Assembly (NCBI GenBank): GCA_963751455.1
Contig: CAVVUN010000006.1
Coordinates: forward strand, 228,589-292,588
Direction of reading: 5' to 3'
Length of the DNA stretch: 64,000 bases
Source: Nitrospirota bacterium
GTDB taxonomy: Bacteria > Nitrospirota > UBA9217
Part shown: one piece after another, positions 101 to 47,748 of the stretch
Layout: each line of letters opens with the position of its first letter
Position numbering within the stretch: the stretch's first letter is position 1
Position numbers and translations under genes: made by a program
Notes under the pieces: model-generated
Told to the model about the DNA's origin: nothing
Seen by the model: only the letters and a program-made list of their open reading frames with translations
The model's database searches: none

Positions 101-835
101 TTACATCGCCGCTTCGGCAGCAACATGCCCGGCTAATGTCGTAATAAATGCCTTCAGTCCGGTTAATTCGCTCATTTCAGAGTACACGCCGTTTTTTGAA
201 GCAATCCGGGGAGAAAGAATAATAGTAGCAGCAGAGTATAATTGTTCGGCCATCAATTTCTTACACAGAATGTTATAACGCTCGGCATACGAGGCATTCT
301 GAAACTCCGGGAAAATGGGAAAGTTCGGAGAGAAATCCTTTACCGCCCTGCGTGAAGCCGGAGCGTCTTCAAGCAGCATTAAATAACCCAGAAACGGTCT
401 CTTACTTTCTCCGAAAGCCCCTTCACGGTAGGCAGTCCATAGATCAACCGCATTTCCAAGGGCTTCCTCACAACGATTATTACAATTGTTGCCGAAGGAG
501 CCCGCCTGCGACTTAAATTCAACCGCAGCAATGAGTTTTCCCTGATTCATCACCAGCAAATCCCAAACCTTGGTAGGCCGGAAAAAGCCAGGCAGCGTAA
601 GGAGGCGTCGTTTCTGCAGGATGTCCGCATGGCCGAGCCCATTTGCATGCACGATATCGACAACGAGACGGACAAAGCCATGAAGATTGTTGCCTCCGGT
701 AACCGCGCCTCGTTCACCCTGGTCCATTTTTCCGCTTGTACGCTGCTTTTTTGTAGCCTTTTTTCTGCTGACCCAGAACTTTTTGACAGCAGAACGCGCC
801 TTCGCTTCATAATCAACAAGATCAAGCGGCATCAT
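101..835 (-). CDS. PaeR7I/XhoI-family type II restriction endonuclease
   Basis: Family motifs [40 protein letters not shown]. Likely start MMPLDL at 835, overlapping the methyltransferase stop. Confidence 0.88.
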
Positions 836-2558
836 CCACTCCCTTTTCGCCATCTGATGCGATAATGCACCGCTCATCTGGCGATAATTTATAAAGATCG
901 GAGGTCAGAGCGTTGCATGCCCTGACGTCTCGCTTATCCGCAGCAGCTCTCAATTTCGCTCGCATGTCTTCCGGGACATCCTGCCAATGAGGGATGCGAA
1001 TGCGGCGCAGATACTGTGCCTGGAATCGCAGATACCCGCCTCGCATTTTTGTGGAATAGGTTGAAATAAAGAGCCCGGGGATATCCGATAGCAGTACTGC
1101 CTGGAGCGCTTTTAAATCCCATGTGTCCGATGTAATGTAATAGAGATTGTGATGAGGATAATATTTTCCTTCCTCATACACGATGTTTGCCTCGCCCTTT
1201 ATGTCAGGGATCAGGAGCTTCGGCGTGTTCGTAAGCTGAGGGGTGATCCGGTCAATCGTCCGGTACCATCGGTCGCTGTTCCGCTTCGCCACGTTACGGT
1301 TGCAGATAATAGTCTTATGCCGGTTCAAATATGCAGCAAGCTTCGGATATTTTTTCAAATTTACAAGGCCGCCCTCTTCGTCAAAAGGATTAATAACGCC
1401 TTTCCCGCGCCATTCAACATGGCCCGCCACGATGTCTTTCGTCATCACCAGCGGCAATTTCCGGTCTTTTTCTACATCAAGCTCATCATACGGCCCGACA
1501 TAAACTTTATCCGCGCCGGTAGCAACGCCGATGCCGACTTTGCACCCCGCCTCTTCGAGTGTTGGAAGCTCTGCTTCAAGTCGTCTTAGAACAGCAAGCT
1601 GATCAAATGATTCAAGCACCCACGGCTCGCTGCCATGCATGATGCCGCTAACTTCATGCACATCGCCGCTGGGTTTGATTGATTTGGCTCGCATATCATG
1701 TGCAAGCTTGTTTAAGGTGTCTTTATCAACTTGTGGACGATGCGCTATGCGGGTCGCTTCGGACTTTTCATGTGCAATTACCGTAATAGCCGGGTATGCG
1801 CTCACTTCAGAATGAAAGGCATCGGTATCGACCATATCAATATAGTATTTCAGATGATAGCCGTGCGCAACCATCTTCCGCAGCGGCCCACCGTAACGGT
1901 TCTTCATCCACCGATCAGAGCAGATGAATCCCACAGAACCTTTCGGCTCCAGGAGCTTTAATGATTTTTCTATAAATGGGATGTACAGATCCGCGCGATC
2001 GTAAAGAGTATCAAAGCGATGCCTATATTCGGCAAGCAGGACAGCAGGGATTAATTCCTGGCGCACATATGGAGGATTGCCGACGATGTGAGTAAACTGA
2101 AAAGGAAATTCGGTAAGGAGAAAATCGCTCTGAATAAGCCATGCATCGAGCAGCTTTTCAGTATCGGATTTTGATAGTCCCGTATCCTTGAGCAACGTGT
2201 GGAGCTTCCACCGTGTTTCCAAAAAACTCTTACTATGCAGTTCAATTGAACGAATAGAATCTCTGAGATCTGCAACAGGTTGAGGGTGCGCAGGAGCATG
2301 TGTATTGTAAGAATCGAGCAGCCGTTCCACAGCCACTAGAAGAAACGCGCCTTCTCCGAATGAAGGTTCCAGCAAGCGTTTCTTGTAAAGAGCGACAGTG
2401 GCCGTGTAGCCGGTTAAATCCAGGATAAACTCGACCACTTCACGGCGTGTGAACACAGCACCGCGCCCCTCTACGCCAGCCGCTGCCAACTGCTCAATAG
2501 CGCCTTGAAGCCGGTCCATACCTGGCAATGCAATTTGTAAAGTGTCAAGTGTCGTCAT
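822..2558 (-). CDS. N6-adenine DNA methyltransferase, gamma class (M.PaeR7I/TaqI-like)
   Basis: [16 protein letters not shown] (motif I), IVGNPPY (motif IV), TaqI-like C-terminal region; coupled to the endonuclease gene. Confidence 0.92.
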
Positions 2559-2615: not shown

Positions 2616-5600
2616 TTACGCCTCCGGTTTATTACCGCTTTGTTCCTGTTCATAGAAATCCATTTCTCTTTCCCACTGCTTCCTTTGAGCGATTGCTTTT
2701 TCTTTTGCACCTTCTTCGCCCCATCTCTTGACGGAAAAGCGCCTTAATTTTTCTTTACCTGGCATTGGGCTTCCCGAGGCAAACCAAGCATCAGTCGTCC
2801 AGACCTTGCCATTTCTCTTGGTGACGCTTTTTCCACGTCTGACACCTACTATGCCGGACTTATTCCTGGCAGTAATTCTAATAGCGTTTTCCCTTCTTTT
2901 GTAGGGTGTTATTAATTTATTGATTTCAGCTAATTGCTCTTTTGCGGCTTCAAAGGCATCTTTTATACCGCCATATATAGAATCGCTAAAAAATTCATTA
3001 TAGTTCTTGTCTCGCCGTCTGACTCTGATTTCCCAACCGTGTGTACCCCTCTTAGTAAAGATATCAATCCTTGTGATTCCAATAGTTCTTGGAAAAGTCT
3101 TTTTAATAAAATCCTTAATCTCAGAATAATCTATAACTTTATTCGGTTCAGAAGAGGAAAATAGTGAACCTGAGATTTTTATCTTCGGTACATAGTCGCC
3201 CTTCTTGACTGCGCTGCCTTTTCCTCTCTTGCTTGCAGTACCAAAGCTTTTCGCATAATGTTGATGCCGTACTCTTCCTTGCGGAATAATTGTTAAGTCT
3301 TTGCCCCACCTTAGCAATGTTTTTAAGCGCCACTTTAAGGTTTCTTCAGTATATCTATCATCCATTATTTTTTCAAATGGCGGCCTTACGGGTTCATCTT
3401 GCCTGACAGTCTCCCAAATTATTTGTAGTGGCTCAGTGGTAAGCGCTTCTTTAAGCAATTTCCGAAATTCGCCTGGAGATACAGTCACTGGTTGATCACC
3501 GGTTAGCCAGCCACCAAGACGTAAATCAGATATTGCTACACGATCATCGATTTGTGATACTGGCACTCCACCCTGTATTGACTGCCAAGCATTTTCCACC
3601 AACGCAACATTCGGACTCGACGGCAAGAAAAAGTCCAGCCGACTTGAAGCCCTTCTCCTGACATTCAACATGCCCAAATTGCCGAGAGTTTCAATTATAG
3701 AGCTTCTCGACTCGGTCGGTTGTATCAAATTTCCGTCATCGGTTTCTACTAGGAGTTTGGTTTCCGTCAACCATGCCCGAAATACTAATGAGTAGGATTC
3801 CCAGGTTTTACTTGACGCCTCTATGAACGGAAACTGTTGTTGAAGATATTTAGACATAGCCTTTACAGAGAATTTATCACCGTGTGATACGGCGTTAATA
3901 ATTCGCGATACGATTTCATTCTTTAGAAGTTGTCGCCGTATATACTCCCCTAAACGCCCATGATTATAGATATCGCGTACAGATTGAGATACTTCCCATC
4001 CATCTTTACTTGCTATGATCAGATTAAAATTTCTCAATTCCCGAAGTATGTTGAAGGCATATCCCCGCGATAATCCCTGAGTCTTTTCAATATCTTCGAC
4101 AGAGATGTCTTTTTTGTTTTTATCTATAAGCGAGTGAAAAACGGCCAGTACGGGGCTAGGAGAGGTTCTGTAGACATTTATCTGGCGAAACTCGGGAAGT
4201 TTTTGATAAACTAGATAATCTTTAAAAACGTCACTATAAGTGTCATAAGTAATTCCGGTAAGCCTGATTAATCTTGAAGCCGTTAGTTTATCAAGAATTT
4301 TTAGTAAAAGTGGGTCTTCATCGAAATGTCTATGAATTTGGTTAAAGTCTGCGGGGAGCAATCTTGCAATTCGAGAAAGATAGTCTCTTTCCATTTCATC
4401 AAGTTCTTCAAGCTCTTCATTAAATAAATCATCAAGCTGCAAACCTGCGGATATCAACTCACTTTGAATAACGCCTTTACTGACTAATCTTGTTAGATGC
4501 GCCATTGTTCTTTTTAACAACCAAGGAAATCCTTGGGCAAAGCTGAGAACATATGATTGAACTTCACGTGTTATTGGTTTAGCTGCTGTCTCGTTAATTC
4601 TTCGTATAAGTGAGATGGCCTCTTCAACTGAAAAGTCAGGCAATTCGAAAGATTTTGAAGATTGATTTATTTTTTCGAGGGAAATTTTAGAATTATCAAA
4701 AGTCGTCAGCTGGTCATTTTTCCTAGCAAAAATGACAAATGTCTTATTTTTGCTACGAGAAAAAATATCAAAAAGGTTTTCGTAAGCTTCAAATATCTCT
4801 GGAACAAGGAACGTCGATTCAAATTGATCAACGAAAAACAACTTCAATCTATCTCTGTTATTTTCTATTAAATTGTTAATTTGATTTTCAATATCACGAA
4901 AATCTTGCGCTAAGTAGTCCGAATTCGTGAAGCGCTGCACCACGGAAAATATATCAAGAGTTGATTTAATATCACGCGCATCATGCAATTCTGTAATAGC
5001 ACCTGCTTCCACCTTTGCCTTTTCAATAAATGCCAAAACCGAGCTTTTCCCAACACCTGAACGACTTTTAACCTGTAAGATGTTAGGCCCTTGATTCTCA
5101 TCGATATAGGTTGATAGTCGTTCAATAAACTTATCTCTTCCTATGAAAACATTCGGGCTTGCTGGCAACTTGTAATCTGCCCAATCAGTACCTAAAGATA
5201 AGCCCTTCGGAATGCTTCGTTCTTTTTCACGATAAATCTTGCTTGGCTTTTTTGGGCTCAAAATTGGCTCAAGTGGTTGCAGAGGAATCTCCGATGAAGT
5301 TAAAGCCTGCAAAAACTGCACGTCATCAATTTGATTGCAATTGAGATCAAAAACAGAAAAATAGGCCGGTGTAATAGAATTATGCGCGCGTGCAATAAGC
5401 ACTAAAAAAATGTCATCATCCGTTTTCAGGATTTTGCTAGTAACAGGTATATAGCCTTGTTGTTGTAACACACTTGCCAACACATCAAAAGATGGACATC
5501 TCAATGAGTCTTCAATCGACCTGAATAGTCCCTTCCCCGTTATGCTGGTGATACCGTACGATTTGACTTTAGAGTAGTAATCATCGGCTTCCGGAGTAAG

Positions 5601-5909
5601 TGGGGCCGTTGACAAAAAAAGTCCATGTACTTTTTTTTCGTTTAAGCCTAATGGTAATAACTTCCCAACAAAGGCAGAGAATTCCTTTCCTGTAATCGAT
5701 TTTTCCAAAGCCTTCGCTTCACCAATAACTTGCTGCTGTGTTGTTACATTTACACCTTCAATATCATACTCAAGACTATTCTTCTTTTTCCTTAATTCAA
5801 CATTAAAGCCAGAGGCTTGTAGATATTTTTTCAAAAGGGACTCGAATAGGAGCCCTTTATAGAAGCTTTTGTTTTCTTCGGTTTGTTTGCTATGATAGAA
5901 AAGAAACAT
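2616..5909 (-). CDS. Mrr-like PD-(D/E)xK nuclease + STAND-type ATPase + winged-helix region + two C-terminal AP2-like domains; putative defence protein
   Basis: N-terminal G.LFE...EYDIEG...IGEAK; FIGR, Walker A SRSGVGKS, Walker B FFVDQFE, GFPW (STAND GxP); C-terminal HGWEIRVRR...FFSDSIYGG and NKSGIVGVRR...FSVKRWGEEGAKEKAIAQRK. Start taken at the second Met (ORF track starts at 5945). Confidence 0.75.
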   Translation of the reverse strand: MFLFYHSKQTEENKSFYKGLLFESLLKKYLQASGFNVELRKKKNSLEYDIEGVNVTTQQQVIGEAKALEKSITGKEFSAFVGKLLPLGLNEKKVHGLFLSTAPLTPEADDYYSKVKSYGITSITGKGLFRSIEDSLRCPSFDVLASVLQQQGYIPVTSKILKTDDDIFLVLIARAHNSITPAYFSVFDLNCNQIDDVQFLQALTSSEIPLQPLEPILSPKKPSKIYREKERSIPKGLSLGTDWADYKLPASPNVFIGRDKFIERLSTYIDENQGPNILQVKSRSGVGKSSVLAFIEKAKVEAGAITELHDARDIKSTLDIFSVVQRFTNSDYLAQDFRDIENQINNLIENNRDRLKLFFVDQFESTFLVPEIFEAYENLFDIFSRSKNKTFVIFARKNDQLTTFDNSKISLEKINQSSKSFELPDFSVEEAISLIRRINETAAKPITREVQSYVLSFAQGFPWLLKRTMAHLTRLVSKGVIQSELISAGLQLDDLFNEELEELDEMERDYLSRIARLLPADFNQIHRHFDEDPLLLKILDKLTASRLIRLTGITYDTYSDVFKDYLVYQKLPEFRQINVYRTSPSPVLAVFHSLIDKNKKDISVEDIEKTQGLSRGYAFNILRELRNFNLIIASKDGWEVSQSVRDIYNHGRLGEYIRRQLLKNEIVSRIINAVSHGDKFSVKAMSKYLQQQFPFIEASSKTWESYSLVFRAWLTETKLLVETDDGNLIQPTESRSSIIETLGNLGMLNVRRRASSRLDFFLPSSPNVALVENAWQSIQGGVPVSQIDDRVAISDLRLGGWLTGDQPVTVSPGEFRKLLKEALTTEPLQIIWETVRQDEPVRPPFEKIMDDRYTEETLKWRLKTLLRWGKDLTIIPQGRVRHQHYAKSFGTASKRGKGSAVKKGDYVPKIKISGSLFSSSEPNKVIDYSEIKDFIKKTFPRTIGITRIDIFTKRGTHGWEIRVRRRDKNYNEFFSDSIYGGIKDAFEAAKEQLAEINKLITPYKRRENAIRITARNKSGIVGVRRGKSVTKRNGKVWTTDAWFASGSPMPGKEKLRRFSVKRWGEEGAKEKAIAQRKQWEREMDFYEQEQSGNKPEA

Positions 5910-5978: not shown

Positions 5979-7283
5979 TTATTTTTTCCAGGTATCGTAG
6001 GCCTTCTTACTCTTTGATGGAACCGAAACAGGGTCGATTAACCTAACGATTCGCTTAAAGGCATCCCTGCACCTACCGTATGACCCGATCCGCAACCCTA
6101 CGACCGTTTTCGTGTCCGGTAAAGCCAGCATTATGGCTACCTCGCTTGGCGTAAAACTTTTAATGATCTGGTCATAATAAGGAACCGCAGCTCGGGATAC
6201 CCCATATTGGTTGCCGACAGAACAAGTCACAACAGTTGACACTAGTTCCGATTTGGCAGTATCTGGGATGGCGCCTTGGGAGGTGATCTGAAGAAGTCTT
6301 TCTGCAAAAGGTGGTTCATTATAGAAATTATCAAAAGCTTGGTGTACTTCAAAGAGCCGCTTACATGCTCCCGAAATCAATGCATGCCTTTCGCTATCAC
6401 TAAGCAGATTTAAAAGAGCGAGTTTTTCAAAAAAAACCTGAGACGCTTTGTGGCGGTCTTTATCCCCCTTTGCCAAGTAATCTTGGTGTCTATCGATGAG
6501 GTCCGATTTTGCCTTCGGTGTTAAATCAGGCACGAGTTCACTAACAACCGCTAGTGCATTAATTCGTCCTTCTTGGGCTATAGCGGGGTCACAAAATATG
6601 CCATGTAGTGTTCCTACAAGTAATTCCCGTTGTGCTTCGTGGGTTTTCCGTAGCCGCTGAATCCACTCGTCTTTTTGGTCTTTTGTGAATTTTTTACCAT
6701 TGATCGCCTTTATGAAAGCCTGTATGTCAACACCAACAGGGTTTTGCTCTCCCGTTAAGGCGTATTTAGAGCAGCGATTCAGAAAAGAAATTAATTCATG
6801 ATCATCGATTTTTCCTACAGCAGGATGAGCAGCTGAGAAATTATTCCGAATATCGCGGCACTGATCCAAGAAGAAGTACCCGTCCTCAGTGATCAGGTTT
6901 AGGCTGAGACAGAGTTTAAGGAGTTCGGCATCCTTTAAATCTTGTAGCGCTCTCTCATCAAAGTCCTTTGCGTCGATAACCTGACCCACTACATTGAGGC
7001 CGAAGCGCCTTACCTTGTCTCTAAGTTCAAGAATTGTAGCATTCCAGACATAATTAATGGCACTGTCGAAAAGACCAGATGCGACTGCGACACACATACG
7101 GGCCAATGCCTCGCTACGAAGAGCAGGAGGAACTTTAGTTAAGACACGGGGAAGATTCGTCCAAGCACCATCGATTTCTTCATCACTCGCTAGGATATCT
7201 CTGGGTACGCCCAGAGCCGTCGTTAGCGCTATTAAAATTGACTGACTGTTTTTGATGACTGCCGGTAGATTTACTTTAGACAT
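5979..7283 (-). CDS. HEPN-motif protein with helical C-terminal region (putative RNase defence effector)
   Basis: CRDIRNNFSAAHP (R-x6-H) and upstream GLFDSAINYVWN helix; start MSKVNL at 7283 after GAGGGA; lies inside the defence operon. Confidence 0.6.
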   Translation of the reverse strand: MSKVNLPAVIKNSQSILIALTTALGVPRDILASDEEIDGAWTNLPRVLTKVPPALRSEALARMCVAVASGLFDSAINYVWNATILELRDKVRRFGLNVVGQVIDAKDFDERALQDLKDAELLKLCLSLNLITEDGYFFLDQCRDIRNNFSAAHPAVGKIDDHELISFLNRCSKYALTGEQNPVGVDIQAFIKAINGKKFTKDQKDEWIQRLRKTHEAQRELLVGTLHGIFCDPAIAQEGRINALAVVSELVPDLTPKAKSDLIDRHQDYLAKGDKDRHKASQVFFEKLALLNLLSDSERHALISGACKRLFEVHQAFDNFYNEPPFAERLLQITSQGAIPDTAKSELVSTVVTCSVGNQYGVSRAAVPYYDQIIKSFTPSEVAIMLALPDTKTVVGLRIGSYGRCRDAFKRIVRLIDPVSVPSKSKKAYDTWKK

Positions 7284-7329
7284 ATGATTTCCCTCTTTGG
7301 ACACTACAACCCGAAGATGACGATTCAAC

Positions 7330-8238
7330 TCACTCTTCCGCAAAATAATCCGAATCCACTCTACGTATTTCATACTTTGCTGTTGAAGTCGTTCCCAGTC
7401 CATAATCGATCATCAATTCCGCAAGCGTTCTTCCATCAATCAGGATCACCTTTGGATCAATGCTTTCGACATACTTTACGGCATCATCGGAAAATCTGCC
7501 GGTTGTAATGAAGACGCCCTTCTTTGCTCTTTTGCCGTGAAGCGCACCGACGAATTTCTGAATCTCCGGCCGCCCCACAGTACCTTCCCATCTTTTAGCC
7601 TGCAAATAAATTACATCCAATCCGAGACGATCTTCCTTGATAATGCCATCGATACCCTCATCGCCGCTTTGACCTATTGATTTACCCGCGTCTGCATGCG
7701 AACCACCATAACCTAGCGCCACCATCACATCCACAACCAGCCGTTCGAAGAATTGCGGAGAATTTGCCTTGATTCTTTCCATTATCTCGGATGCCAGATC
7801 AGCCCGGATATTCAAATATGCCTTTTGAAGTGTCTCTTCAGGAGTTTCTACAGGAGAGGTATCCGTGTGATTAACAGTGGTGACTTGATCGGTCTTGGAC
7901 GTATGAAATTCGACGAATTCAGGAAATTGATTGAGGATCTTCACGTCGATTCGGTCATGGCCTTTCTTGTGCAGCTCCTTGCCGCGTTGGGTTACGCGGA
8001 AATAGCCTCGACGGGGGGATTCAAAAACATTTGCCTGGACAAAGTAGCTCTTTGCCCATGCAATCCTATTATCGAACTTTGTCTGCGTCCCACTCGGGAG
8101 CATCTCCCGTAAATCTTGCTCCGCGATGTTCATGCGTTTCGCGATGATCTCTCTCGCCTCTTTCATGGAATGCTCTTTGCCATCAGCAGCAACATCCAGC
8201 AGGGGCTTAAAAAAAGATTGAAAATCAGGAACCGCCAT
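7330..8238 (-). CDS. mrr: Mrr type IV restriction endonuclease
   Basis: Mrr_N (VPDFQ...LPSG...NRIAWAKSY) plus Mrr_cat (DEGIDGII...YLQAKRW...IQKFVGAL...GVFITT). Confidence 0.95.
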   Translation of the reverse strand: MAVPDFQSFFKPLLDVAADGKEHSMKEAREIIAKRMNIAEQDLREMLPSGTQTKFDNRIAWAKSYFVQANVFESPRRGYFRVTQRGKELHKKGHDRIDVKILNQFPEFVEFHTSKTDQVTTVNHTDTSPVETPEETLQKAYLNIRADLASEIMERIKANSPQFFERLVVDVMVALGYGGSHADAGKSIGQSGDEGIDGIIKEDRLGLDVIYLQAKRWEGTVGRPEIQKFVGALHGKRAKKGVFITTGRFSDDAVKYVESIDPKVILIDGRTLAELMIDYGLGTTSTAKYEIRRVDSDYFAEE

Positions 8239-8517
8239 GATTAGGCTCCTCGGTCGCAACATGTGATCGCATAGGATGATGTTTTTCGCTGATTGGCTGA
8301 ATCATTCGTTCTGGGACAGTTGATATAAGCAAGGTGTACTTTTCCGGTTGGTTAATATGGAGAGAATATCACAGAAGGTTACAAAAATAAAGGGAGTTCT
8401 GAGCAGCTGGTCTCATAATTTCAGTGTGAACGATTGAGGTTTCGAGAAGATGTCGATACCGCAGATTACAGGAAGAACTTCTCGTCACCTCTTTTCTCCA
8501 TCTACGCAGTCAGACAC

Positions 8518-44722: not shown

Positions 44723-45139
44723 TTATGCCCCGTCACCTGATTTAGCAAGAAAGACAGCCGTGGCCAGCAGACCAACGAATAATCCTGCAGCTTGTAACTG
44801 TGTGCTTTCTTTTGATCCCGTGGCCACATAACGGGCGAATTGCTCGCAGTTATTCCCGAACAGATCATACATATCGTTTTCCAGAGCCCTGTCTATTCTT
44901 TCTATGGCACGGGGTTCATCGGTGATCTGACCCAGCAGATCCCATTGCCCTGTATTATCAAGCCAATCCGTCCGAATACGGGGCGGTGTTTGATGAATTA
45001 CCACAGGTGAGTTTCCATATTTTGGAAGGCGAAGTCGGTTTCCAATATCAAGAATCGCATAATGATCGACCAAAACGCCTTTAACTTGGCTTTTTTGCTT
45101 TATGAGATAAAGACCATTGCTTAATTTGTAATCCGACAT
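44723..45139 (-). CDS. LRAT/PLAAT-like permuted NlpC/P60 thiol hydrolase with C-terminal hydrophobic helix
   Basis: DHYAI, VVIH, YDLFGNNCEQFARYVATG (NCExF) and tail AAGLFVGLLATAVFLA. Confidence 0.8.
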   Translation of the reverse strand: MSDYKLSNGLYLIKQKSQVKGVLVDHYAILDIGNRLRLPKYGNSPVVIHQTPPRIRTDWLDNTGQWDLLGQITDEPRAIERIDRALENDMYDLFGNNCEQFARYVATGSKESTQLQAAGLFVGLLATAVFLAKSGDGA

Positions 45140-45186
45140 TAGAGATCGCCTTTCATGAAATACATTGATAATCAAATAAAAAGAAG

Positions 45187-45213
45187 GATAGCTTTAAGTA
45201 CATCTTATTTAAA
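45187..45213 (-). promoter_or_regulatory. 27-bp repeated promoter/operator, copy 1
   Basis: GATAGCTTTAA-N8-TATTTAAA; the minus strand reads TTTAAA-N17-TATCCT. Confidence 0.6.
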
Positions 45214-45228
45214 AGGTTCTCAAAAAAA

Positions 45229-45813
45229 TTATACTACTGGTGCATACAAATACTGCTTTCCTTGTGGGTCGATAATTTCCTTTCTTCTAACTAATCTAGA
45301 TTTATAAAGTTTACCCAAATACATACTTGCAGTATAAATATCTTTTTTAAAAACTAAATCTGCGATATCTCTTGCCGTTGACTGGCCTACTCGCATTATA
45401 TAGTCATAAATAAGAAAGTCGAAAACTTCTCTTTTTTTTGATTGGCTCTCTCCATAAACGATTTTTGGCCGCTTCTTATTTTTCTGTTTAATAAGACACA
45501 TGATCTTTCTATGTGCAGATACGAGTTCGAGATCGTATAAAGAACTTTCTGGTATATTTTGGCTTATAAGATAACATTCTTCTGGCTTGCTTACAATTTC
45601 CTTCATCAGCAATACTATAACTTCGTCCGCAATTGAGGAGTTAAAAGATTTTATTTTATCAAAATCTAGATAGATAATGTCGTCCGGTTGCTTAAGATTT
45701 TTTTTAATCTCTTTCTCAATTTCCGCTCTAATCTCGACGCCCCAATCTCGAGAGTTTAAGTCGGCCCCCTTAATCCCGAGTCTTTTTTTTATCTGATAAA
45801 TCGAAATGATCAT
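45229..45813 (-). CDS. STAS-like + winged-helix repressor (CapS-like)
   Basis: IYLDFDKIKSFNSSIADE (STAS phospho-Ser loop); TARDIADL...ASMYLGKLYKSRLVRR (wHTH). Confidence 0.75.
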   Translation of the reverse strand: MIISIYQIKKRLGIKGADLNSRDWGVEIRAEIEKEIKKNLKQPDDIIYLDFDKIKSFNSSIADEVIVLLMKEIVSKPEECYLISQNIPESSLYDLELVSAHRKIMCLIKQKNKKRPKIVYGESQSKKREVFDFLIYDYIMRVGQSTARDIADLVFKKDIYTASMYLGKLYKSRLVRRKEIIDPQGKQYLYAPVV

Positions 45814-45833
45814 AAATAAACAAACGCCAATGA

Positions 45834-45860
45834 GATAGCTTTAAACTGACTCTATTTAAA
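45834..45860 (-). promoter_or_regulatory. 27-bp repeated promoter/operator, copy 2
   Basis: GATAGCTTTAA-ACTGACTC-TATTTAAA, with arms identical to copy 1. Confidence 0.6.
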
Positions 45861-45862
45861 CC

Positions 45863-46798
45863 CTATAATAGACTATGTCGGGTATCTGTGTCAAGATGAA
45901 AGTGCAGCTCACCAAAAGCAAGAATAATAGCAATTCTAGTGCCTCTTAGAAGCGGCAAATTAATATATTCTTTTAACTGATTTTCAGGATTAAGCAATAT
46001 TGCACTGTCACCCGAATTTATCCATAAATAGCCAAGTGTATCAGTAACAATTCGTCGCACTTCATACAGGCCAAAACCGCGATCACCCAGCCCAGAAACA
46101 CCCGGCTCCATTGCCATTTTAAGGTAATCAGAATCATGTTGAAAATTATATTTGTATTTATCTTCCAGACTGTTCTTTATTCCAATACCATAATCAACAA
46201 CAGCTAGCTTGACGACCTCGAAACCCGTTCTTTGATAGTTATACCGCTGAATTGCAACAAATCCCTCACTTCGGCTATGGGTATAAACGTTGGTACATAT
46301 TTCGGACATCACCTTTACAAATTGGTCAACATCCATTTTATTTCTAAAATTGCGAAGGATACGTTTGGCACGTTGCCGAAATTTTACGATAATATCGTCC
46401 ACATCTAGTTTGCCTTGCTCAATATTGGTACTTATTTTTTGAATTTCTAACAATTTATCTGTCTCGTATTTTCGCAGATACGTATTCTCAAGATTGGGCG
46501 AGTTGAACCATTCCGACCCTTGTTTATAGAAATCCATCCGCTCTAAATACAACAAGAAGTCGTCTTTGACGGCAATAATTGTTATCTTTTTTGCCGTTCT
46601 TTTGAAAACGTATTTCCCAAGAAATAGTAAACCCAGCAATCCATACGGAGAGATGAAAGACACGTTCCTTAAGTTGAAGTAAACAGCGCTATCTAAAGTT
46701 AATGTAGATTTGTTAATTTTATCAATTACGAACCTGAATTTGTCAACATCTTCAAGCCCATCCGGGATGTCTATATTGTAGATAAGAGGCATTTGCAT
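45863..46798 (-). CDS. STAS + GHKL anti-sigma-factor-kinase-like protein (CapK-like)
   Basis: FNLRNVSFISPYGL, YLERMDF, SEICTNVYTHS (N-box), VDYGIGI, GFGL, GT; no phospho-His box. Start at 46798 or 46792. Confidence 0.75.
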   Translation of the reverse strand: MQMPLIYNIDIPDGLEDVDKFRFVIDKINKSTLTLDSAVYFNLRNVSFISPYGLLGLLFLGKYVFKRTAKKITIIAVKDDFLLYLERMDFYKQGSEWFNSPNLENTYLRKYETDKLLEIQKISTNIEQGKLDVDDIIVKFRQRAKRILRNFRNKMDVDQFVKVMSEICTNVYTHSRSEGFVAIQRYNYQRTGFEVVKLAVVDYGIGIKNSLEDKYKYNFQHDSDYLKMAMEPGVSGLGDRGFGLYEVRRIVTDTLGYLWINSGDSAILLNPENQLKEYINLPLLRGTRIAIILAFGELHFHLDTDTRHSLL

Positions 46799-46902
46799 TA
46801 TATGGATGAGCCGCTGAATTGCTGAGTTCTCTCTGGGATCAAATCTTGTTGTCGCGTAAACGACTCCGGAACGTTGATGTTTTTGATGCTTTCCGCCATC
46901 GC

Positions 46903-47748
46903 TCATGCGCCTTCCCACTCCCCTATTTCAAGAGCGTTTAGAAGTTCAGTCACTTTTTCGAATGCCCGCCGCATCAGGATCGCCCGATCATCTTTATCAT
47001 CCGTTTCCAGGAAATCAGCCACCCATGCCGGACCAACGTGTTTCATCGTGGCGAACTTCGACCTGATTTTACCGAGCCCTTCCATAACGAGCTTATTTTT
47101 CAGATGAGGTTTGAATTCCTGAATGATCGCCTCTGCGCCGCCGGGATAATGCTCGATACAGAAAAAGATGTCATAAGCATCCTTTTCTTTCAATCGTTCA
47201 TACATCGCCATTCCTTTCATGACAAGGAACGGCACGATGCCCGCCACTTTTACGCTTACTTTATCCAACCCGCCGCCGGGCAGTTCCCCCTCGATCGTGA
47301 CGGTTATGGTCGAGCCGAAAGCAAGGTCGCATCCTCGCGTTTTTCGCGCACGGGCATCCTGCACAACCTGCGTTCTTCGGCCCTTTCCGGTCCCGCCGTA
47401 CTCGCCTGCCATGAGATCCACAGCGACCCTCACCGGCCCCAGGCCCTCCGCGTCTACGGTCCGGTAGAATCGGAACGGCTGGGCTTTATCCTGCTCATAT
47501 CCCCGCTTCAGGAAAGCTTTTAAGATGGACTGATATGTATCATTGGGGATCCTGGTGAAATCGAGGGCGACGTCTATGTCAAGACTGCCGATGTGCGGTT
47601 CGTCGGACTGCGGAAAGAGAAGCGTAGGCGTCCATCCGCCGATAATCACCATCTCGTCCTTGATCTCGCCGAAAAGATGAATAAGCTCCACAAGCACCGA
47701 TTTGCAGGCTTTCACCTCTTCCGGAGCATAATCGCTCTTGCTTGCCAT
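46903..47748 (-). CDS. AbiEii-like nucleotidyltransferase toxin (type IV TA)
   Basis: VIIGGW...HIGSLDIDVAL, VMKG...R.KEKDAYDI. Confidence 0.8.
   Translation of the reverse strand: MASKSDYAPEEVKACKSVLVELIHLFGEIKDEMVIIGGWTPTLLFPQSDEPHIGSLDIDVALDFTRIPNDTYQSILKAFLKRGYEQDKAQPFRFYRTVDAEGLGPVRVAVDLMAGEYGGTGKGRRTQVVQDARARKTRGCDLAFGSTITVTIEGELPGGGLDKVSVKVAGIVPFLVMKGMAMYERLKEKDAYDIFFCIEHYPGGAEAIIQEFKPHLKNKLVMEGLGKIRSKFATMKHVGPAWVADFLETDDKDDRAILMRRAFEKVTELLNALEIGEWEGA

Follow-up and report, generated by a model that had tools for sequence, protein, structure and literature searches.

In a 64,000-nucleotide stretch of the genome of a Nitrospirota bacterium (contig CAVVUN010000006.1, positions 228,589 to 292,588; hereafter the window), we analysed the gene at 2616..5909 of the minus strand. 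It is intact and encodes a protein of 1,097 residues, with an ATG at 5909 in an open frame that reaches 5945, 12 codons further. Sequence, structure models and comparison with homologues establish the domains of this signal transduction ATPase with numerous domains (STAND) fused to a nuclease, its intact catalytic motifs, its patchy stand-alone occurrence, and the single capture and subsequent conservation of a C-terminal pair of AP2-like units. The protein probably acts by itself as a weapon against phages or plasmids, and what it detects may be the foreign DNA, not phage proteins. A predicted winged-helix array is a better sensor candidate than the AP2 pair, whose fusion is rare (8 of 120 best homologues) and of interest mainly as a clue to the ligand of the C-terminus. 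The following parts were delineated, from the N- to the C-terminus:

5511..5909 (minus): Mrr-like PD-(D/E)xK nuclease domain, residues 13-145, with E35, D61 and E76-x-K78 (Pfam Mrr_cat, E 2e-5)
5241..5498 (minus): small, fast-evolving beta-meander domain, residues 150-235, from the structure model
4416..5198 (minus): STAND/ORC-type NTPase and helical domain, residues 250-510, with a DQFE Walker B, sensor Arg408 and GxP
5043-5066 (minus): Walker A of the NTPase, SRSGVGKS
4176..4415 (minus): STAND winged-helix domain (WHD), residues 511-590
3276..4175 (minus): array of four predicted (winged) helix-turn-helix (HTH) units, residues 596-883, family-wide, candidate sensor, from model and profiles
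3141..3275 (minus): basic disordered linker of variable length, residues 891-935 (model confidence, pLDDT, below 50 at 896-933)
2910..3140 (minus): leading helix and AP2-like unit 1, residues 936-1012, from the structure model
2640..2876 (minus): AP2-like unit 2, residues 1024-1102 (Pfam AP2)

The original prediction, made from the DNA alone, had described a nuclease head, a STAND ATPase, a winged-helix-like region, a linker and two AP2-like units, in a STAND-type nuclease devoid of TPR or WD40 repeats; model and profiles bear out both statements. The protein has the features of nSTAND1 NTPases, namely Walker A and B, the sensor Arg, a GxP helical domain and a WHD, and its Pfam nSTAND1 match exceeds the cut-off. 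Its DQFE Walker B departs from the D[GAS]hDE signature of NACHT proteins (10.1101/2022.07.19.500537; for this and most other papers cited, statements apply to the portions of text available), which sets it apart from NACHT and bNACHT proteins. Like Avs proteins, it has an N-terminal effector with an intact active site (Mrr_cat, D61/E76/K78). Model and profiles give HTH units and AP2 where Avs proteins have a C-terminal TPR-like (or WD40/FGE) sensor, and because this repeat sensor is absent we leave the protein outside the Avs class.

The nuclease residues D61, E76 and K78 are kept in all 120 near homologues and in 83-90 of 91 far ones, and the NTPase and WHD motifs are invariant in the 120 near homologues. 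In related switches a WHD histidine contacts ADP (H443 of NLRC4, H545 of SeAvs7; 10.1101/2022.07.19.500537, PMC13581612). The corresponding residue 571, placed by motif and not by superposition, is Ser or Asn in 120/120 near homologues and Trp or Asn in 82/91 far ones, with His in only 4/211 overall. Thus, the ADP-lock histidine appears to be mostly replaced in this family, a feature new here that depends on the motif-inferred position. Its apparent replacement by Asn, Ser or Trp is a hint that the resting state differs, and perhaps resembles more that of the DNA-loading ORC/Cdc6 proteins.

Among the 120 best homologues, eight carry the AP2 tail and form a single clade, 108 are tail-less, and four harbour HA repeats instead. 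The tail is under purifying selection, with a ratio of nonsynonymous to synonymous substitution rates (dN/dS) of 0.07-0.21. In the eight tailed proteins, 23 of the 64 columns of AP2-like unit 1 and 25 of the 77 columns of unit 2 are invariant, against 0 of 38 for the linker. These observations confirm that the fusion is real, and an independent contig covers the end of the core and the linker as far as the start of the tail. A read-through or assembly artefact was also considered and is excluded, as the fusion occurs in seven other clustered proteins as well as at loci L029 and L127. The predicted AP2 nature of the C-terminus likewise held: the models show the three-stranded sheet and helix of the AP2/ERF fold (PF00847), and Pfam AP2 was matched by 10/10 members of the tail alignment (best E 1.8e-10), the query alone remaining below the Pfam cut-off. 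The top Foldseek match of the tail is a DNA-bound AP2 tandem. With the tail as query, a viral fold library returned nothing at E < 0.001, its best rows being intron and HNH endonucleases, and no match to the whole protein or to the tail profile was found among PDB sequences. A search of low sensitivity for long proteins (609-1,941 residues) with this tail gave four matches, all of them family members. Two short proteins (P0122 and P0253) consist of a fused-type tail and part of the linker; they may be gene fragments or split-off tails.

The same AP2 pair occurs as stand-alone cellular and plasmid genes coding for ~150-190 residues. Rhizobial plasmids carry such genes, as do 16 of 76 genomes from a single family (f9) of the host's phylum, for instance G069, G076, G104, G160 and G198. 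In the tree of the AP2 module, the fused tails cluster together (support 93) within the stand-alone genes, adjoining L030/L031, and the inner order of this cluster mirrors the core tree (FastTree, midpoint-drawn, long branches flagged). This pattern indicates one capture followed by co-divergence. A tblastn search of 50,697 phage records gave no match to the AP2 pair. The phage or homing-endonuclease origin implied by the original prediction is therefore not supported, the nearest relatives being stand-alone cellular and plasmid genes.

We confirmed 115 metagenome loci with AP2 pairs and kept 80 for classification. One is a STAND-AP2 fusion, six have the pair preceding HNH_2, a further one has it preceding another HNH, and one shows the classic HNH_3-AP2 arrangement; most of the rest are stand-alone. 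The six AP2-HNH_2 nucleases, of ~333 residues (L082:254-1246, L083:2838-3896, L105:210-1208, L106:1784-2782, L107:2-1123, L108:1108-2106), match PADLOC restriction-type HNH models. In the gene L046:63-1016 the pair is joined to an HNH nuclease of another type (PF01844), which looks like a separate capture. Since the six form one clade with near-duplicates, this amounts to about two independent HNH captures. Two points are new here: the AP2 pair stems from stand-alone genes, and it was separately also fused to restriction-type HNH nucleases. The AP2-HNH_2 proteins have the layout of type IV restriction enzymes, with a reader joined to HNH; we found no description of them in the available portions of the literature examined.

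The AP2 pair had been proposed as the sensor. Since 108 of the 120 best homologues keep every catalytic motif with no long tail at all, and four have HA repeats, it cannot be the obligatory sensor of the family. The array is family-wide. Its profiles gave weak but consistent winged-helix matches, including one to the winged HTH (wHTH) of Csa3 (E 0.003), and Atlas leads for it lay at 0.87-0.91. Pfam searches of 25 array sequences detected AAA_assoc_C in nine, and MarR, TrmB, HrcA and IclR in two to three each. The array and the beta domain are the least conserved parts of the protein, with a mean pairwise identity of 0.32 among homologues for the latter. BLAST of the two array halves against each other gave no match, and hence no sign of internal duplication.

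We consider it nearly an even chance that DNA triggers assembly of the protein, the array doing the sensing and the AP2 pair being an optional aid to binding. The protein would act alone as an NLR-like defence switch, its array binding foreign or aberrant DNA; this would permit ATP uptake and oligomerisation by the NTPase, and the assembly would turn on the Mrr-like nuclease heads. The AP2 pair would provide an extra grip on nucleic acid, contributing avidity or targeting rather than core sensing. In SeAvs7, an ADP-bound resting state is followed by trigger binding, exchange for ATP, tetramer formation and DNA cleavage (PMC13581612), and by analogy the NTPase would gate the nuclease here. Of the DNA-reading sensor originally put forward, DNA sensing stays plausible, and its assignment to the AP2 pair is not supported.

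Several observations weigh against DNA sensing by the array, or against a defence role. Winged helices frequently bind proteins, the folds wHTH and AP2 are matched weakly, and the add-on of one member (P0250) is a C-terminal GNAT domain, which is not a DNA binder. Between L029 and L001, dN is higher in the tail (0.076) than in the array (0.033). The association with defence genes is modest: no PADLOC-type neighbour was found at 25 of 30 loci, several loci sit among housekeeping genes, and at nine the flank on either side is shorter than 5 kb. AP2 domains can also bind RNA (PMC11652630). Each of the 11 Avs complexes modelled with confidence has its sensor bound to a phage protein (PMC13581612).

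It is unlikely, in our estimate, that the protein is rather an Avs-type receptor whose array binds a phage or host protein, the AP2 pair only holding the activated nuclease on DNA. Every Avs trigger identified to date is a protein (PMC13581612), Avs4 and Avs3 are the nearest defence proteins of solved structure, and the array is not unusually basic (40 Lys and Arg versus 38 Asp and Glu in 300 residues). Nevertheless, the model contains no TPR/WD40-type sensor, an array of ~300 residues is small for wrapping a protein, and nucleic-acid-binding tails were gained repeatedly at the C-terminal end. A rather improbable reading is that of an ATP-dependent, methylase-free, type IV-like restriction enzyme, in which the winged helices would read a modified base or a sequence and an ORC-like ATPase would load or assemble on DNA for local, non-suicidal cutting. 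The Mrr-family head, the fold matches to ORC/Cdc6 and BrxC, the lack of a linked methylase at most loci and the near-absence, as judged by motif, of the ADP-locking His are in keeping with it, and winged-helix fusion nucleases do serve as readers of N6-methyladenine (PMC11037411). Its weak points are the domain order and GxP/WHD signature, which are those of a STAND switch, and the array itself: it has no profile match to the wHTH of a neighbouring Mrr, and the 25 array sequences have no Pfam match to a known modification reader. Among 25 of the 26 Pfam families listed for these sequences there is no DpnI-type methyl-reading winged helix.

That the AP2 pair senses a specific DNA sequence or structure within the tailed clade seems doubtful indeed, even though the tail is conserved over cores 53-77% identical, with invariant Arg, Trp and His on its strands, its tree mirrors that of the core, and a DNA-bound tandem is its best structural match. 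Besides the tail-less majority of homologues, the tail-less P0009 lies inside or beside the tailed clade, tailed proteins keep the whole array, and the putative recognition residues are common to the stand-alone genes and not diversified. We give very little credence to a non-defence role, as a domesticated regulator or repair nuclease, or to a passenger tail. The loci among housekeeping genes fit such a role, and the frequency of stand-alone AP2 pairs in one family suggests a housekeeping role of the donor; the distribution is patchy, low-GC and mobile, however, with an invariant nuclease site and purifying selection on the tail. DNA-triggered assembly through the array is the account that we favour.

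The family is large. Using phmmer, we collected 1,154 clusters (50% identity) at E <= 0.001 and 478 at E <= 1e-10, including partial and tail-only matches; 191 of 225 near-full-length members have 850-949 residues. Existing annotations of homologues read 'nSTAND1 domain-containing NTPase' or 'restriction endonuclease'. Three or four HA repeats (PF03457) replace the AP2 tail in P0046, P0072, P0102, P0111 and P0267, at two distant tree positions; C-terminal AP2 or HA repeats were gained in three separate lineages altogether. In P0232, an XRE-type HTH is inserted before the WHD. Two further distant members are P0257, in which a long C-terminus replaces the array, and P0261, which has a 150-residue extension.

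The gene occurs stand-alone and patchily, and its GC content is below that of the flanks at 28 of 30 loci. A tail-less copy resides in an E. coli Rac-type prophage between replication genes and hokD (35 of 5,426 genomes); annotated at 853 residues behind an IS30 remnant, it may lack its first residues. The one family locus on viral contigs is an enterobacterial prophage; no RNA holder was among those listed, a negative that carries no evidential weight. Several copies are truncated, split or beside insertion sequences (L002, L009, L013, L019, L020, L027, L112). No recurring neighbour or partner gene was found among 28 genome loci. PADLOC was run on 140 of the 209 open reading frames (ORFs) within 5 kb of 30 loci, 69 having been dropped (housekeeping or transposase Pfam names, short overlapping frames), and generic ATPase and HTH matches were excluded from the count. 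Defence-type neighbours occur at five loci: HNH (L002), type III restriction-modification (R-M) and GmrSD (L004), AbiE (L008), PDC-S40 (L017) and a C5 methylase (L020).

In the window, the gene is part of a five-gene co-directional island, whose other members are:

7330..8262 (minus): canonical Mrr (Mrr_N and Mrr_cat), in the same island but outside the STAND-nuclease system
5979..7403 (minus): 474-residue frame, probably 434 residues from the second Met, with an RNNFSAAH (R-x5-H) motif (phrog_27609, E 3.5e-45)
822..2558 (minus): type II N6-adenine methyltransferase
101..877 (minus): XhoI-family type II restriction endonuclease (Pfam XhoI, E 2e-86; PADLOC REase_II)

The product of 5979..7403, between the Mrr and STAND-nuclease genes, is a candidate defence RNase, HEPN-like by its motif only and not by a family match. 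Third-position GC is 0.35 in the STAND-nuclease gene, the most AT-rich of the island, and 0.42-0.50 in the others; TetR and AraC genes with values near 0.6 bracket the island. CTCGAG has an observed/expected ratio of 0.77, the third-lowest of 64 palindromic hexamers and too mild to bear on the neighbouring R-M pair. The original prediction had placed the protein in an operon with Mrr and R-M genes. Neither occurs at any of the other AP2-tailed loci for which flanking sequence is available, three in all (L001, 3' side only, L029 and L127), and tailed loci elsewhere adjoin toxin-antitoxin-like pairs and housekeeping genes; we therefore read the island as a cluster of defence genes and not as one system of several genes. 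Another stretch of low GC (0.34-0.40) lies at 45001-47000.

As had been anticipated, no catalogued system matches the protein over its full length in PADLOC, NCBIfam, PHROGs or the PDB. In PADLOC-DB 2.0 the query has two weak local CARF3 matches only, and 11 further members have none or local ones. Literature searches on combinations of nSTAND1, Avs, Mrr, winged helix and AP2, and on homologue accessions, returned no description among the papers listed, most subscription papers being outside their coverage. The architecture is not described in the available passages of PMC12803255, PMC8195603, PMC12839542, PMC5714182, PMC11037411, 10.64898/2026.10.19.760177, 10.1101/2025.09.30.679545 and 10.1101/2022.07.19.500537. 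Lee et al. 2026 (PMC13581612) report at least 90 defence STAND families with mostly TPR-like sensors, four clusters that defend without an identified trigger, and the sensing of non-protein molecules as a possibility. Their main text never mentions HTH or AP2, and three homologue accessions are not in seven of its supplementary files. From their search design the family is likely among their 589 clades, and it could be one of those listed or one of Avs22-24.

It is possible, though we would not call it probable, that the Mrr-STAND-(wHTH)4 proteins are widespread NLR-like receptors that sense nucleic acid directly and are tuned by added DNA readers (AP2 pairs, HA repeats, XRE HTH), the AP2 pair being a roaming targeting module also captured by restriction-type HNH nucleases. 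If true, this would answer the question of Lee et al. (PMC13581612) whether prokaryotic STANDs sense non-proteins. The family places DNA-binding folds at the expected sensor position, and sister proteins with and without AP2 or HA tails offer a natural experiment on DNA triggering of an NLR-like switch.

Among known systems, Avs4 (PDB 8DGF) is the best Foldseek match (E 5e-11, 13% identity). Avs4 and the Avs proteins of PMC13581612 likewise combine an N-terminal PD-(D/E)xK nuclease with a central STAND NTPase and WHD in one gene. Unlike Avs4, our protein has 1,097 rather than ~1,540 residues, an HTH array and AP2 pair in place of the TPRs, and a family in which the motif-placed ADP-lock His is mostly replaced. 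It matches the nSTAND1 NTPases (PF20703) named in PMC8195603, whose available text describes other architectures and does not mention the nuclease/wHTH/AP2 form. ORC/Cdc6 and BREX BrxC ATPases have no N-terminal nuclease and act in replication or multi-gene systems. The DpnI-like type IV endonucleases (PMC11037411) are also stand-alone nucleases with a winged-helix reader, and NTPase fusions are mentioned there; those have a McrB-like or unspecified NTPase and one winged helix, in contrast with the protein analysed here, whose NTPase is of the STAND type and whose four units gave no DpnI-type match. In HNH-AP2 homing endonucleases (His-Me group 2, PMC5714182), AP2 is similarly the DNA-binding module of a nuclease, but HNH_3 precedes it, whereas here a STAND nuclease has acquired a pair derived from stand-alone genes, a pair that elsewhere lies in front of HNH_2. 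The protein is best viewed as an antiviral-STAND variant and as a candidate nucleic-acid sensor that lends itself to testing.
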